Positions 15,001 to 21,000 of a stretch of 64,000 bases of DNA are shown here, in pieces. The stretch comes from an uncultured Methylomirabilota bacterium. Lineage in GTDB: Bacteria; Methylomirabilota; Methylomirabilia; Methylomirabilales; 2-02-FULL-66-22. The stretch lies in NCBI GenBank assembly GCA_963845565.1, contig CAWJSJ010000002.1, positions 576,001 to 640,000 on the forward strand, written 5' to 3'. The position numbers were made by a program. Position 1 is the first letter of the stretch. Each line of letters begins with the position of its first letter.

Positions 15001-18000
15001 AAGCCTGCGGACCAAGGCCTCCGTGGCGCGCACGGTCAACCCGCGCTTCACCACAAGGTTGCGGCCCTTAATCTGGTCCGCCGGTCCCTCGAGTCCGAGC
15101 AGGGCCCGCGCATGCCCCTCGGAGAGCGTTCCGGCGGCAACGTCTTCTTGGATGCGTTTCGGAAGCCGGAGAAGCCGCAGGGAGTTGGTGACCGACGACC
15201 GATTCCGCCCAAGCCGTCCCGCGACTTCTTCCTGTGTGAGACCAAACTCGTCAACGAGGCGCTGGTAGGCCTCAGCGGCTTCGAGCGGATTCAGGTCCTC
15301 TCGCTGGAGGTTCTCCACCAGGGCCATTTGCAGGGCCTGGGAATCGGTTGCGTCCTTGATGATCGTCGGGATGTGGGTGAGACCGGCGAGCCTGGCTGCC
15401 CGGATGCGTCGCTCTCCCGCGATGATTTGGAAACCGCCAGGAACACGCCGAACCACCACCGGCGTCAAAACCCCGTGTTCCCGGATCGTGGCCGCAAGCT
15501 CCTCGAGCGCTTCCGTATCGAAATGTTTCCGGGGCTGGAACGGGTTGATCTCCAGGTCGACCAGGGGCAATTCTTGAACGGTCGTACTTGGCTGTGCTGG
15601 CTCCGCGCCAGGGATCAGCGCTCCAAGTCCCCTACCCAGCCCGCGTTTTTGCACCATCGATCACCTCTCGGGCGAGTTGCAGATAACCCTCGGCTCCCGC
15701 GCATCGGATGTCGTACAAGATGATGGGCTTTCCGTGGCTGGGCGCCTCGCTCAATCGCACATTACGGGGAATCACGGTGCGGAAGACCCGTTCTCGGAAG
15801 TGCTGACGGACCTCAGCTGCCACCTGCCCAGCCAGATTCACACGTCCGTCAAACATCGTGAGCAGAATCCCCTCAACTGCCAGATGTTGATTCAGCGTCC
15901 GTTGACACAACCGGACGGTCTCCATGATCTGCCCCAAACCCTCCAGCGCGTAATATTCGCATTGTAGTGGGATCAGGACGGCGTCCGCTGCCACCAAGGC
16001 GTTCAGCGTCAGAAACCCAAGAGACGGGGGGCAATCGATCAGGATGTAACGATATTGATCCTCGAGGGGCTGCAGCGCCTTTCGCAAGCGGTGTTCCCGG
16101 TCCGGGAGCTCCACCAACTCAACCTCGGCCCCCACCAACTCCCTGCGAGACGGAATAACCTGGAGGGCTGGAATCGCCGTGGGAAGCACGACGTCGCGCC
16201 CGCTCGCATCTCCAAGCAGAAGGTGGTACATGTGGCGCGTGACCGTGCGCGGGTCCACGCCCACACCGGTGGTGGCGTTCGCCTGGGGATCGACATCCAC
16301 CAATAACGTCGGCTGCTCAGCGGCAGCGAGACATGCGGCGAGGTTGATGGCCGTCGTGGTCTTTCCCACACCGCCCTTTTGGTTGGCCACCGCGATGATT
16401 CTCGCCACGTCGATCCTCCGCTGTTCGGTGGACCATAGCACATTTCTGGTGGCCCAGCCAAGGGCGATGTTTCACGTGAAACATCCCGCCGGTTATCCGC
16501 CCAACCCTTTTCGGAGCGTGAGGATTTCATGGGAGGGTGCCCCAATCCAGGCCGGGACTGCGATTTCTCCGACCAGTTCGAAGCCCATACCAATCAGGTC
16601 TGCCAGCGCCGCATCGGTTTCCCGACCGGATCCAACCTGCGCGAGGAATACTCCGCCGGGTCGCAGGAATGGAAAAACGACGCCTCCGATTTTCGCTAGG
16701 GGCGCCACCGCCCTTGCCGAAGCGAAATCGAACGAGGCGGCCATTTCCGGATCGTGCTCAACGATCTTCTCCGCCCGCCCAAGCACCGGGCGGACGCGGG
16801 ACAGCGCCAGCAGGCGCACGACGTGACGAAGAAACGAAATCTTCTTCCGCGAGACCTCTATCAATGTGAAATCGAGGCTTGATCGTATGATGGCGATTGG
16901 GATGGCGGGAAAACCGGCCCCAGATCCGATGTCCAGGGCACGCCTCGCACCTAACGGAATCAGGGGAAGACAGGCAAGTGCGTCGAGAAAGCCGTGCCGT
17001 ACGATCTCCTCGGGCCGTGTCAGCGCGGTGAGACTCATATGTCCGGCCCACCGGAGAATCTCCTCCCGATAGGCGCGAAACGCGAGAACCTGCTCCGGCC
17101 CTAAGGGAACCCCAAGCTTATCGGCTCCTGCCGAAAGGAGCTCGTCGGGGTCCGGGCGGGCGAGGAGCTCACCGCGTTTTTGTCTGGAGGGCAAGTTTCG
17201 ACTAGGCCGGCTGCCCCTCTGCTGGCGACGGGCGCGCCGCCCCCCGGTTGATCAGCCACTGCTGGCCGATCTGAAGGACATTATTGACCAGCCAGTACAG
17301 AACCAAACCCGACGGAAAGCTCCAGAACATGAAGGTGAATATGATCGGCATCATCCAGAGCATCATCTGGGCTTGTCGCGGATCGCCGGTGGTCGGTGAC
17401 ATCTTTTGTTGAAACCACATGCTGACGCCCATCAAGAGGGCGAGTACGTTGGCCGAGAGGACGTATCCTCCCCAGACCTCCGCACGGAAAAGCGAGTCGG
17501 GCTGGGTCAAGTCGCTGATCCAGAGAAAGCGGGCTTGCCACATTTCCACGGAGCTAGACAGTGCGTTGTACAACGCAATGAAAATAGGTATTTGCGCAAG
17601 CATTGGGAGGCACCCGCCCATCGGGTTGACCCCGTGCTTTCGATACAGGGCCATGGTCTCTTCTTGTTTCTTCTGGGGGTTGTTCTTGTACCGCTCTTGC
17701 AGCGCTTGGACTTTGGGCTGGATGGCCTGCATCGCCTGCATGGATTTCATGCTCTTGTGGGTGAGCGGATGGAAGGCGATCTTTTGTAGGATCGTGATCA
17801 AGATGATTGCGACACCGTAGTTCCCGGTGTAATGATAAAGAAACTTGAGCAGCCAGAGCGCCGGGCGGGCCAAGAAATCAAACCAGCCAAGGTCGATGAG
17901 TTGGTCGAGGTCGTGTCCGACACCGCGCAGCAGGTCGAGATCGCGTGGCCCGGCGAAAACCAGAACCCCTGCCGACGCCTCGCCGGATGACTGTAGTGTT

Positions 18001-21000
18001 TGTTTCTGCCAGATCAGACCGACGATCGGCTGATCATCCGAGGCTTTTGACACGAAGGCGTTGAAGTCCTTGTCCATTGGGAGGAGCGCCGCCGTAAAAT
18101 AGGTGTCTTGCAGTGCCGCCCACGACACCTTCCCCTCCACCACGCGTTCCCCGCTTACCTTGGCGAGATCCTCTTGCGCGCGCTTGCCATCCACCCAGAG
18201 GGTTGGGGGTTGAATGGTGCTTGCGTTTTTGTCGGTGCTGTTGCGTAAGCCCGGCCCCCACGCGAGCCTGGTTTGGGCGACGGCGTTGTCCCCAGAAAGG
18301 TTCCGAACCACGAGGCCGATCTCAACATCATACCGGTCCGCGTGGAATGACAACCGTTTCTCGAGTTGGATGCCGTTGGCGCTTACATGTTTGAATGTCA
18401 GCGTCCCGGTCGTCCCCGCCTGCGTGAGGTCGAGGCGGTCTTTGTCCACCTCAAACACCCCCGCGATTTGCTCCGGGTCTGCCCACGCAGCGAGAGGTCC
18501 GGGGGTTGCCCGGATATCCGAGTTGGCCACCAGGTCCACAGGGGCGCCGCTGGCGATCTTGAAGGCTTTGAGTTGCCATGCCGTCGCCCGGGCGCCCATG
18601 GTGGACATTACCACCCGCACGAGGGGGGTCTCGATGGTGACGTTCTTTGGGGATAAACCGCGCTGCGCGGTTGGGGTGTAGCCCTTCGGGAGCGTCGGGA
18701 CTTTTGCTGTGATGGCGGCGGGCGGTGCCGCGGCCGGCGCGGCCATTTTCTGGTTGTCGGTCTGGGTGGCCGGCGGTCGAGGCGGCTCTTGAACCGGAAC
18801 CTCTACCCGCGACAAATACCATTGGTATCCCAAAAGAATGCCGATCACTAGAACCGTCGCTATGATTGCGTTCCGCTCCATGCTCACTCCAGACCGCTAA
18901 CCATTAAAAAGAGTGTCGAACTACGGAACCGGGTCAAATCCACCTGGGTGATATGGGTGGCACCGCACCAGTCGTTGAGCCGCCAACCAAAACCCGCGGA
19001 TAATTCCGTGTTTTTCTATGGATTCAAGAGCGTACTGGGAACAGCTTGGGCTGAAGCGGCACGCGGCGGGAAACGCCGGACCAATCCACCGCTGATAGAG
19101 CCGAATGGGCGCCATGACGGCAAGCCGGGGTCTGCTCACCAGTCTCAATTCGTACCCGTCACCGCGCGCCCCAACATCTCATTCCCGCGCGCGAAAAGCA
19201 GTTCCAGTGTCGATCGGACCCGCTTTCTGGGTTCGCACCCGACGTCACCCCTCGCCAAAAGGAGACAGCCCGCCGTCTTGACACGTTCCGGCGTCGAGCC
19301 GAACACGTCACGCGCGATCCTTCGTACCCTGCTCCGGGTGACGGCGCCCCCTGCTGTGCGGCCCAGGGCGACGATGAGTCGTCCTTTGTTTTCGGGGCTG
19401 GGTAACAGAAAGAGCGTCAGGGAGCCTCGAGACACCCTCATACCAGACCGGCGAATCTGCGCACTCGGCGAGTTTTCGTTCCTTCTCAAGTTGAGATCCG
19501 ATCAGACCGTGAGGCGATGGCGACCCTTCGCCCGGCGCCTCTTGATCACCTTCTGGCCGTCTGCCGTGCTCATGCGCTTCAGGAACCCGTGGCAGGTTTT
19601 TCGCTTGCTCTTGTTTGGTTGGTATGTTCGCTTCATGGTGCTCGCTCCTTGTGGTTTGGCGAAGCGGGCATTCTATGTCTCATGCGACTCATTGTCAAGT
19701 ACCTGATTGCTCTTCATGTCTTTTGTTTGGCAGGGGTTCTGAGTTGGGGCCTCACTGGTGTTTTTCTTGGGTTGTGATGAAGATTTGGCGCGGTGTTCCA
19801 TCGTTTTTTCTGTGGTTAATCGCCATTTATATTAAATAAACTCCTTTATTTTTATATGTTTATGAGGTTATCCACAGGTGTGGAAAATCCTGTGTGTAAC
19901 CTTAACCTCCAGAAAAAGGTTGGTTGTGTTATCTCTCTGAGTTTCCTGGTCCTGCTGGCCACTATCCCGGCGCTTGTTTGTTCCATTCCGGCCGCGCTTC
20001 CAGGCGCACACACGATCCCCGGCGTCGTTACCGAATGAGACCAGTGCCATGTTGTTTGGGGTCGTTCCCCCGTCTTTCCTCCCCGGGAAAAACGCACATC
20101 ACCACTGTTCACCCATCCTAAAAGCTGTTGTTGACATATTCACTTCGGATTTGGTAAAATTTGTTAGTAAAGCGTGGAATTCTTTTGGCGTTTCCACATT
20201 CTGTTGTTAATTGTGCTTTTCCGTTCGTTCTGCGTTGGCAATTAACAAACCGCCCACATAACGATGTGGGCATCTTATGTTGAAGAAGCGCGGGATTGCC
20301 ACACTTGTCAACACCCGCGGTTACCTAATACTCCTACTCCTATTTTTCTCTTGTTCCTAGAATCGGTTTAAGAGAGTCGGTTGGAATTCTTTCACCCAAT
20401 CTTTCTTGCTGCTACCCGCAATACACAATGGGAGTGTGAGTCTCATGCATATCCGGGTTGAGCGAGATGCTTTCGTCGAAGCCCTCGGGCCCGTACAAAG
20501 TGTCGTTGAGGTCAAAAAAGCCCTCCCGATTCTCTCCCATGTGTTACTCCACTCGGAAGCTGACCACCTGTCTTTATTTGGAACAGATCTGGATGTCGGC
20601 CTTCGGCGGCAAATCAAAGCGGAGGTTATCAAACCGGGAGCCGTGACACTTTCCGCGAAAAAACTGTACGAGGTCGTCAAGGAACTTCCATCAACCACCA
20701 TAGAATTACATGCGGATCCAGACCTTCAAGTCGCCATCTCGTGCCAGCGGTCTAGTTTTCGGATGAAGGGGTTGACGCGTGAGGAGTTTCCCTCTCCTCC
20801 CGACCTGCGCGAGGGTGACGAGTTACTCCTCTCTGCAAAATTGTTCCGTGATTTGCTTCGGAAGACGCTCTTTGCAGTTTCGTCAGACCAAACACGCTAT
20901 GCCCTGACGGGAGTCCTTCTTCAGGCTCAATCCAGCGCGCTGAATATGGTAGCCACCGACGGGCACCGGCTCGCATTGGTGCGCATGATTCGTCCTGAGA

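Follow-up and report, generated by a model that had tools for sequence, protein, structure and literature searches.

The yidC-rsmG locus

The window analyzed here is a stretch of 64,000 nucleotides from contig CAWJSJ010000002.1 of an uncultured Methylomirabilota bacterium (assembly GCA_963845565.1, termed G000 herein). The genome comprises 5.4 Mb in 6 contigs at 66% GC, with 98.7% completeness and 6.4% contamination. Coordinates are positions in the window, and G, f, and g numbers are working handles for genomes, families, and genera of the phylum, whose members are soil and groundwater bacteria. The genes and other features on either side of the yidC-rsmG junction were as follows.

14803..15657, minus strand: parB (TIGR00180 above cut-off)
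15632..16441, minus strand: parA, Soj-type ATPase (ParA-family matches below cut-off, and position before parB)
16493..17194, minus strand: rsmG (gidB), 16S rRNA m7G527 methyltransferase (TIGR00138 above cut-off)
17195..17201, minus strand: yidC/rsmG junction, 7 bp, without remnant; occupied by jag-mnmE-mnmG in f8
17202..18881, minus strand: yidC, membrane protein insertase (TIGR03592 and TIGR03593 above cut-offs)
18921..19148, minus strand: yidD (TIGR00278 above cut-off)
19145..19489, minus strand: probable rnpA, from its position between rpmH and yidD; no NCBIfam match at 1e-8
19502..19636, minus strand: rpmH (L34), a 44-codon frame recognized by eye
19640..20405, no strand: AT-rich intergenic region, likely oriC; perfect DnaA box at 19868
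20406..21548, plus strand: dnaN (TIGR00663 above cut-off)

As the initial annotation had it, yidC abuts rsmG with no mnmE or mnmG between them; both genes are named by NCBIfam models, and the yidC stop is separated by 7 bp from the earliest start codon in the rsmG frame. This junction is the position of mnmE in all MnmE-positive relatives. The dnaA gene is on contig C1, away from the likely origin.

MnmE, MnmG, and MnmA in the source genome

MnmE and MnmG, which are otherwise nearly universal, modify the wobble base, the first of the anticodon, in several tRNAs. A profile search of G000 detected no MnmE helical domain, and the matches to TIGR00450 were all to other GTPases, through their GTPase domain. 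Searches by tblastn through all six frames, using MnmE and MnmG of relatives as well as E. coli MnmE, returned only other GTPases or TrmFO. The best and sole strong GIDA-domain match is a 453-aa protein encoded at the usual place of TrmFO after topA, scoring 598 to 610 bits as TrmFO versus 64 bits as MnmG; score and neighborhood led us to reject it as an MnmG. TrmFO (GidA-small), a flavoprotein paralogue of MnmG, makes m5U54 and no wobble modification. The domain, TIGR00450, and tblastn searches therefore agree with the earlier statement that neither gene is present anywhere in the genome. The retention of MnmA was likewise borne out: the G000 protein is intact, with the motifs SGGVDS, PNPCVAC, and SQEICF, its gene adjoins that of a cysteine desulfurase, and MnmA was present in 103 of the 104 high-quality genomes of the phylum.

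Distribution across the phylum

Among 251 genomes of the phylum, MnmG was found in 52 and MnmE in 54, with both in 48 and neither in 193. These tallies take in the unpublished G033, G043, G075, and G217, none of which entered the trees and on which no claim depends. Within the high-quality subset, MnmG was recovered in 25/104 and MnmE in 27/104 genomes, and the control gene RsmG in 101/104. By family, the MnmE/MnmG counts were 0/0 of 21 genomes in the source genome's own family, 0/0 of 20 in f7 (presumably Methylomirabilaceae), 0/0 of 21 in f10, 0/0 of 6 in f4, 37/37 of 159 in f9, 14/13 of 15 in f2, and 2/2 of 2 in f8; f9 to f13 appear to be Rokubacteriales. The counts match what had been proposed, namely, that this genus, Methylomirabilaceae, and most Rokubacteriales are without the pair and that other families keep it. 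The order yidC-jag-mnmE-mnmG-rsmG was observed in G001 and G002; G058 in the present numbering, which is not that of the initial annotation, has neither gene.

It is scarcely credible that these absences stem from incomplete MAGs or from divergent genes overlooked by the searches. Most genomes are fragmented, and G000 itself has indel frameshifts (gltX and greA) and is missing one tRNA gene that probably falls at the end of a contig. However, RsmG and MnmA were almost always recovered in the good genomes, the yidC-rsmG DNA was contiguous without mnmE in 58 of 58 MnmE-negative loci, the single-contig genomes G017 and G052 are MnmEG-negative, and the six-frame search of G000 was negative, so that this explanation is largely refuted.

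Vertical descent and repeated loss

Of the 23 MnmE-positive loci examined, 22 intact and 1 in pieces, every one had mnmE between yidC and rsmG, the ancestral site. MnmG of the phylum was monophyletic relative to 19 outside sequences (FastTree), MnmE distances followed marker distances (r = 0.92), and parsimony on an 81-genome sample gave 11 to 18 independent losses, some of them between species of one genus (g14 and g19). With mnmE at the ancestral site wherever it is kept and gene trees congruent with the species tree, these results show vertical descent of MnmEG with repeated independent loss. The initial claim of repeated loss thus gains three independent lines of evidence (ancestral site, MnmG monophyly together with MnmE distances, and parsimony); its wording of a lost pathway stands for the genes and does not extend beyond them. 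In f2 and f9, mnmG lies away from mnmE, so that losing the pair took two separate deletions each time, which suggests that selection on the pathway had relaxed.

A scenario of fewer losses plus regain, in which an early loss of MnmEG in the f9-f13 branch was followed by transfer back into one f9 subclade, would account for the clustering of the majority of MnmEG-positive f9 genomes in a single subclade and for the long branch of f9 MnmE; the outgroups of the MnmG tree, moreover, were not picked as nearest phyla. We regard it as very unlikely. The f9 mnmE occupies the ancestral site, f9 MnmG falls together with that of f2 and f8 (support 0.997) in a phylum that already forms one clade in the free tree, and G166 retains both genes within an otherwise negative clade. 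Nor is the between-order MnmE distance inflated (ratio 1.06 versus 1.31 and 1.92 within orders), and several losses would be needed even so.

tRNA set and codon use

G000 encodes 45 tRNAs plus tRNA-Sec, one short of the 46 that make up a complete set lacking A34, and has all six C34 tRNAs (Lys-CUU, Glu-CUC, Gln-CUG, Arg-CCU, Gly-CCC, and Leu-CAA). The C34 set was examined in few genomes: five of five sought (Lys-CUU, Gln-CUG, Gly-CCC, Arg-CCU, and Glu-CUC) were found in the MnmEG-negative G052 and G053, and pattern searches found four of the five in G182 and two in the MnmEG-negative G131. The same five occur in the MnmEG-positive G001 and G023, so that the set is older than the losses. In G000, G-ending codons make up 77% of Glu (GAG), 84% of Lys (AAG), and 84% of Gln (CAG) codons, a bias that is weaker in f7 and f11.

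We consider simple repeated loss without replacement the probable explanation, leaving the actinobacterial solution of s2U34 only, with C34 tRNAs reading the G-ending codons. The phylum ancestor would have had MnmE, MnmG, MnmA, and a separate C34 tRNA for each G-ending codon. Given that set, U34 tRNAs would be needed for A-ending codons only, a minority in GC-rich genomes, and the C5 side chain, which mainly enables U34 to pair with G, would become dispensable under such a division of labor. Drift could then have deleted mnmE and mnmG many times. With MnmA retained, the likeliest base at position 34 of tRNA-Lys, -Glu, and -Gln is plain 2-thiouridine, which would keep these tRNAs off pyrimidine-ending codons.

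Codon use was similar in the two states. GC3 in f9 was 0.86 in keepers versus 0.88 in losers (p = 0.6), and once GC3 was accounted for, the use of A-ending, AGA, or TTA codons showed no effect of MnmEG state (81 genomes and 7 genes, with kin not independent), so that a codon shift following loss was rejected. The raw GAA difference in f9 (0.21 versus 0.16, p = 0.04) comes from one among six tests and carries no tree correction. The pair was also lost at modest GC3 in f7 (0.71) and f11 (0.64), which counts against the model of loss without replacement. That model accounts for the permission to lose MnmEG and is silent on why about a quarter keep it, because nothing separates keepers from losers.

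Search for a replacement

The Elp3 route of archaea, eukaryotes, and some bacteria would yield a C5-substituted U34 without MnmEG. Elp3 was rejected as a replacement: it was found in 0/135 genomes at least 90% complete, with control matches in Thermotoga and four archaea, and the best match in G000 had an E value of 1.5e-5. G000 also had no orthologue of MnmC, MnmL, SelU, TrmL, TrmJ, or TadA, nor, by tblastn and phmmer, of the xo5U34 route (TrhO/TrhP and CmoA/CmoB), for which the queries were E. coli proteins and did not include Bacillus-type TrhP1/P2 and TrmR. The idea that another gene has taken over at the vacated site was rejected, since this site mostly holds jag or nothing and, in 3 loci, a metallo-beta-lactamase-fold hydrolase. 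Inspection by eye of the neighbors of mnmA, tilS, and tRNA genes in G000 gave no candidate. Motif scans of G000 recovered, among deaminases, only proteins that we take to be RibD, dCMP-deaminase-like, and nucleoside-deaminase-like and, among TilS paralogues and m5C methyltransferases, one presumed TilS and one presumed RsmB-like protein. A search for RNA evidence gave 23 runs, none of which contained half of the query's words; the four examined were all mixed-community contigs and gave no usable signal at the anticodon.

These searches covered known enzyme families, and an enzyme of an undescribed family would escape all of them. Such an enzyme, old in the phylum and modifying C5 of U34 or otherwise restricting U34, could have made MnmEG redundant, hence the frequent loss. 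The 11 to 18 losses in one phylum, partly between species of one genus, would fit, as would the missing codon cost. In G000, which is without TrmL, TrmJ, and MnmEG, tRNA-Leu(UAA) and tRNA-Arg(UCU) have no known U34 modifier in split boxes, where U34 modification has been called mandatory (PMC5041475), a point that also counts against loss without replacement; for M. tuberculosis, an unrecognized enzyme has likewise been left open (PMC10531406). Still, we find this explanation doubtful, with Elp3 missing from 135/135 genomes, no consistent gene at the vacated site, and no candidate seen by eye near mnmA, tilS, or the tRNA genes of G000; Streptomyces, in the same genetic state, is reported to lack (c)mnm5U.

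tRNA-Glu(UUC) and position 33

No tRNA-Glu(UUC) was found in G000 by ARAGORN, Infernal, or blastn, and a relaxed ARAGORN run gave noise only; GAA corresponded to Glu in 101/102 conserved columns. In G005, the gene lies ~940 bp beyond the stretch matching the final kilobase of contig C2 of G000, and the G000 copy therefore probably lies in the assembly gap. The notion that the own family has no tRNA-Glu(UUC) and reads GAA with C34 was rejected, since the patterns behind it (0/15 and 0/21) required U33. In this family, all 14 full-length tRNA-Glu(UUC) genes, from 14 of the 21 genomes, have C33 rather than the invariant U33, and no genome has a U33 copy. Two further apparent gaps were pattern artefacts: tRNA-Glu(UUC) in f10 (0/15), an effect of U32, was found in 10/21, and tRNA-Glu(CUC) in f7 (6/11 missed), a T-arm effect, was positive in 5/5 retested, the sixth not being retested.

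Could the tRNA change compensate for, or follow from, the loss, with C33 retuning the anticodon loop or position 33 freed from MnmEG recognition? The uniform C33 of the own family would suit this, as would the contact of the mnm5 group with the sugar-phosphate of U33 (PMC13107128). Fifty genomes from outside the phylum that have tRNA-Glu(UUC) with C33 were hand-picked, with no completeness control, control gene, or U33 comparison group; 31 of them gave no MnmG match, and 19 had MnmG. The combination of C33 and no MnmG match extended to genomes of Myxococcota, Chloroflexota, Patescibacteria, and Acidobacteriota (7/7 Myxococcota/delta-type and 2/2 Acidobacteriota MAGs without a match, again with no completeness control). 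Against a link, U33 is kept in every other MnmEG-negative family, and the Lys(UUU) and Gln(UUG) tRNAs keep U33 as well. The own-family tRNA-Glu(UUC) gene is an integration site, and escape from anticodon nucleases or gene replacement from a mobile element are candidate causes of C33 independent of MnmEG. We therefore judge this explanation improbable. An undescribed wobble solution of either kind, an unrecognized U34-modifying family or tRNA sequence changes replacing the modification with C33 as the first visible case, is somewhat easier to entertain but still unlikely.

Comparison with known systems

Two surveys single out Actinomycetota as the phylum without MnmE and MnmG (PMC6063277; bioRxiv 10.64898/2026.09.09.750475). 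The MnmEG-negative state is already described there, and with 31 of the 50 hand-picked outside genomes giving no MnmG match, it is not confined to Methylomirabilota; the repeated loss in free-living diderms put forward by the initial annotation is real, yet less exceptional than implied. M. tuberculosis and Streptomyces albidoflavus resemble our losers in being free-living and GC-rich and in keeping MnmA and C34 tRNAs without MnmEG. For M. tuberculosis, s2U is reported as the sole member of its family (PMC13602947, PMC10531406, PMC12772374), and the species is credited with TrmL, TadA, and TrmR homologues; G000 has no TrmL or TadA orthologue. Actinomycetota, in contrast, are assigned one loss at the phylum root (PMC6063277), as opposed to 11 to 18 here, partly recent and with keepers as sister taxa.

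A single ancient loss cannot reveal what permits loss. At least 11 losses, with keepers and losers in one genus, provide many sister-pair contrasts for a model of an expanded tRNA set followed by drift, and an initial comparison found the precondition in keepers and losers alike, with codon use unshifted once the pair was gone. Very few wobble modifiers (MnmA, TilS, and Tgt) seem to serve decoding in G000, which poses the problem of keeping its tRNA-Leu(UAA) and tRNA-Arg(UCU) off the codons for Phe and Ser. Since one member family can be grown in enrichment reactors, tRNA chemistry is measurable.

Keeper lineages, with mnmE, mnmG, and mnmA, resemble the (c)mnm5s2U34 pathway of E. coli and B. 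subtilis (MnmEG-MnmA-MnmL/MnmC), and in f2, mnmL (TIGR01212) adjoins mnmG. Unlike that pathway, G000 retains only the 2-thio branch, MnmE, MnmG, MnmL, and MnmC being absent. Reduced genomes (Mollicutes and insect endosymbionts) have similarly lost otherwise conserved tRNA enzymes, but the genomes here are large and the tRNA set is full. Neither the small genome nor the shrunken tRNA set of genome reduction is seen in G000, with its 5.4 Mb and 45 tRNAs plus tRNA-Sec, and the f2 keepers (1.3 to 3.4 Mb) are mostly smaller than the f1 losers (1.7 to 7 Mb).

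MnmE and MnmG in the G000 genome

The window of this uncultured Methylomirabilota genome (G000) carries two gene groups at the locus:

window, minus strand: origin-side cluster rpmH - (rnpA) - yidD - yidC - rsmG - parA - parB
window, plus strand: dnaN - gyrB - gyrA

In the window sequence, the yidC stop codon and the earliest start codon in the rsmG frame are 7 bp apart, which leaves no room for any gene between, so that yidC abuts rsmG without mnmE or mnmG, as the initial annotation had stated. Its further claims, that neither gene lies elsewhere in G000 (5.36 Mb in 6 contigs; completeness 98.7%, contamination 6.4%) and that MnmA is retained, also held. 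The MnmE helical domain had no match in the whole genome, matches to the MnmE model were confined to the G domain of other GTPases, and tblastn with relatives' MnmE and MnmG and with E. coli MnmE found nothing better. MnmA has intact motifs, and its gene adjoins a cysteine desulfurase. The single strong GIDA-domain match, a 453-aa protein encoded after topA, was rejected as MnmG; it scores as TrmFO.

dnaA is not located between rpmH and dnaN (window 19640-20405), where a DnaA box is still present; the gene sits on another contig (C1:402831-403478). The rnpA/yidD-dnaN distance is short in families f1-f5 and f7 versus about 2.2-2.5 kb in f8-f13, which suggests that dnaA departed from the origin in the order of G000.

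Distribution and synteny across the phylum

All 251 species genomes of this phylum were searched, and MnmG was detected in 52 and MnmE in 54; 48 genomes had both genes, 10 had one (8 of these below 90% complete), and 193 had neither. These tallies take in four unpublished genomes (G033, G043, G075, and G217), on which no claim depends. Among 104 high-quality genomes (≥90% complete and ≤5% contaminated), MnmG was found in 25 and MnmE in 27, with the controls RsmG and MnmA in 101 and 103, respectively; at 90% completeness or more, MnmA occurred in 132 of 135 genomes. The pair was missing from the family of G000 (0/21), f7 (read as Methylomirabilaceae; 0/20), f10 (0/21), and f4 (0/6), and present in f9 (37/159), f2 (13-14/15), and f8 (2/2). 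These family tallies bear out the proposal that it is absent from the genus of G000, from Methylomirabilaceae and from most of f9-f13 (read as Rokubacteriales) and kept in other families. Two 94% complete genomes, G047 (L064) and G198 (L122), have mnmE and no mnmG match, and within genus g36 G193 has mnmG while G191 and G194 lack both genes; these may be intermediate steps of the loss or simply reflect gaps in assembly.

The rsmG region was compared in the window and 80 of the 251 genomes, picked to span genera where coordinates were listed (f10 thinly, with two genomes). In all 58 MnmE-negative loci, yidC and rsmG were joined by contiguous sequence that lacked mnmE; gaps of <1 kb contained jag, or in three cases a gene of the metallo-beta-lactamase fold. 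All 23 MnmE-positive loci (22 intact, G166 in pieces) had mnmE directly before rsmG or before mnmG-rsmG. mnmG is kept at this site in f8 only; it has been relocated beside mnmL in f2, and in f9 it adjoins two radical SAM genes, which we take to resemble cofG/cofH, and a presumably luciferase-like oxidoreductase. Pathway loss in f2 and f9, where mnmG lies away from mnmE, therefore required two separate deletions. The metallo-beta-lactamase-fold hydrolase was found in G037 (L058:8045-8929), G042, and G040 (loci L061 and L060), and a 37% identical homologue is encoded in G000 at C3:138148.

Repeated loss

On a FastTree species tree built from six concatenated proteins (2,225 columns), with f8 assumed as the root, Dollo parsimony gave 18 losses, and 16, 15, or 11 after collapsing nodes below 0.90, 0.95, or 0.99. 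Keepers and losers of the pair occurred within the same genera (g14 and g19 in the tree, g15 in the tally), in agreement with the repeated loss initially proposed. Scattered presence could also reflect regain by transfer, and since the MnmG-tree outgroups were sequences at hand rather than the nearest phyla, a close neighbour would be the conceivable donor. This is unlikely: in a tree with MnmG from E. coli and 18 further outside sequences, the phylum's own 24 sequences group together as a single clade (0.997), and MnmE distances track those of the markers (r = 0.92, 22 sequences) without being inflated between orders.

The loss of MnmE and MnmG in this phylum is real, repeated many times, and apparently unreported, and should be useful as a replicated natural experiment. 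We found no report of it in the literature covered, most subscription papers being outside that coverage. PMC6063277 gives both genes as absent only in Actinobacteria and also mentions a second, unexplained loss and minor losses in its supplement; a 2026 preprint (10.64898/2026.09.09.750475) likewise singles out Actinomycetota alone among the KEGG phyla represented by at least 20 genomes.

Wobble decoding without MnmE and MnmG

Elp3 was found in 0 of 135 genomes, and searches of G000 with E. coli MnmC, CmoA, CmoB, TrhO, TrhP, TrmL, TrmJ, SelU, and TadA gave no orthologue. A weak TrmL match was rejected as RlmB; TrmL fell below the cut-off in all five genomes tried, keepers among them. TilS, Tgt, MiaA, TrmD, and TsaD are present, judged by motif. 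MnmL, for which the YhcC preprint (10.64898/2026.05.18.725915) is the source, had no orthologue in G000 with a relative's protein as query.

The tRNA set of G000 is of the full 46-anticodon type without A34, with every C34 tRNA present and only Glu(UUC) unassembled. Its Arg tRNAs include GCG, UCG, and CCG anticodons, with neither an ACG tRNA nor TadA; tRNA-Sec is also present. By our own gene caller (4,846 genes), G-ending codons account for 77% of Glu codons and for 84% of both Lys and Gln codons, AGA for 1% of Arg codons, and TTA for 1% of Leu codons. In the MnmEG-negative G052 and G053, as in the keepers G001 and G023, Lys, Gln, Glu, Gly, and Arg each have a C34 tRNA; pattern searches found 4/5 in G163, 4/5 in G182, and 2/5 in G131. 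In G000, gltX and greA are frameshifted (C2:2608225-2610320), most likely by long-read indel errors; the order gltX-greA-HD protein-tRNA-Gln(CUG)-tRNA-Glu(CUC) is conserved in its family.

Most likely, decoding is divided between U34 and C34 tRNAs, with 2-thiolated U34 lacking a C5 substituent, a chemistry that we infer; public RNA runs yielded contigs of mixed communities only. U34 tRNAs would read A-ending codons and C34 tRNAs G-ending ones, so that the C5 side chain, mainly needed for U34-G pairing, would become dispensable and be lost by drift, while 2-thiolation would be retained. The same model was put forward by Diwan and Agashe (PMC6063277), and Grosjean and Westhof (PMC5041475) agree with it. 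The loss probably works like the actinobacterial state. Streptomyces has no (c)mnm5U (PMC12772374), and s2U is present in M. tuberculosis, for which further derivatives are left open (PMC10531406, PMC13602947). In Salmonella, a strain mutated in both mnmA and mnmE is not viable (PMC5400242). Several observations do not fit the model easily. GC3 does not separate keepers from losers (0.86 versus 0.88), nor, once GC3 is accounted for, does the use of A-ending, AGA, and TTA codons (7 genes, with related genomes not independent); the pair was lost in f7 and f11 at GC3 of 0.71 and 0.64; and no known U34 modifier for Leu(UAA) or Arg(UCU) is present in G000.

A C33 tRNA-Glu(UUC)

In all 14 full tRNA-Glu(UUC) genes from the family of G000, the loop reads C32-C33-U34-U35-C36-A37-A38, and the 21 genomes searched contain no U33 copy.

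L156:5191-5268 (G020) and loci L176-L204: tRNA-Glu(UUC) with C33 replacing the invariant U33

The tRNA folds as a cloverleaf. Its gene has gone from the ancestral place after purA-tRNA-Lys and serves as an integration site; it is absent from the G000 assembly, and synteny with G005 places it just past the end of C2 (about 2,734,700). We found no report of C33 in a cellular tRNA-Glu, with most subscription papers again outside coverage. Computed contacts of mnm5 with U33 involve its sugar and phosphate (PMC13107128).

Elsewhere in the phylum, the C33 loop pattern gave candidate matches in 4 of 230 genomes. Across GTDB the pattern matched at least 118 places, 115 of them called tRNA-Glu(UUC), and other phyla accounted for at least 111 of the genomes with this loop. 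Among 50 of these 111, hand-picked for spread and assigned to phyla by record title, 31 had no MnmG match: Myxococcota/delta-type 7/7, Chloroflexota 6/6, Patescibacteria 4/4, Actinomycetota 3/3, Acidobacteriota 2/2, Clostridia 0/5, Planctomycetota 2/7, proteobacterial 2/6, and others 5/10. Because completeness is not given for these genomes and no control gene was run, their absences provide only a lead that MnmEG loss extends past Actinomycetota and Methylomirabilota. G251-G269 and G282-G284 include the Myxococcota/delta-type, Chloroflexota, Patescibacteria, and two Acidobacteriota MAGs without a match. C33 may occur more often in genomes that lack MnmG. MnmEG loss does not require it, as U33 is retained in f7, f9, and f10, and the two are not tied to each other, as 19 of the 50 have MnmG.

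In f10, tRNA-Glu(UUC) (L143:4078-4155, G242) was recovered from 10 of 21 genomes; it carries U32, and its anticodon stem differs. This family also carries a dozen or more spaced tRNA-Lys(CUU) 3'-half copies over 50-90 kb (G242 C10:447416-538900, G243 C12:593865-647545), which are probably tandem integrated elements. At L140 (G015 C37:6288), a 3' half of the tRNA-Lys(UUU) type carries a CTC anticodon and escapes tRNA calling; it is probably an attachment-site remnant.
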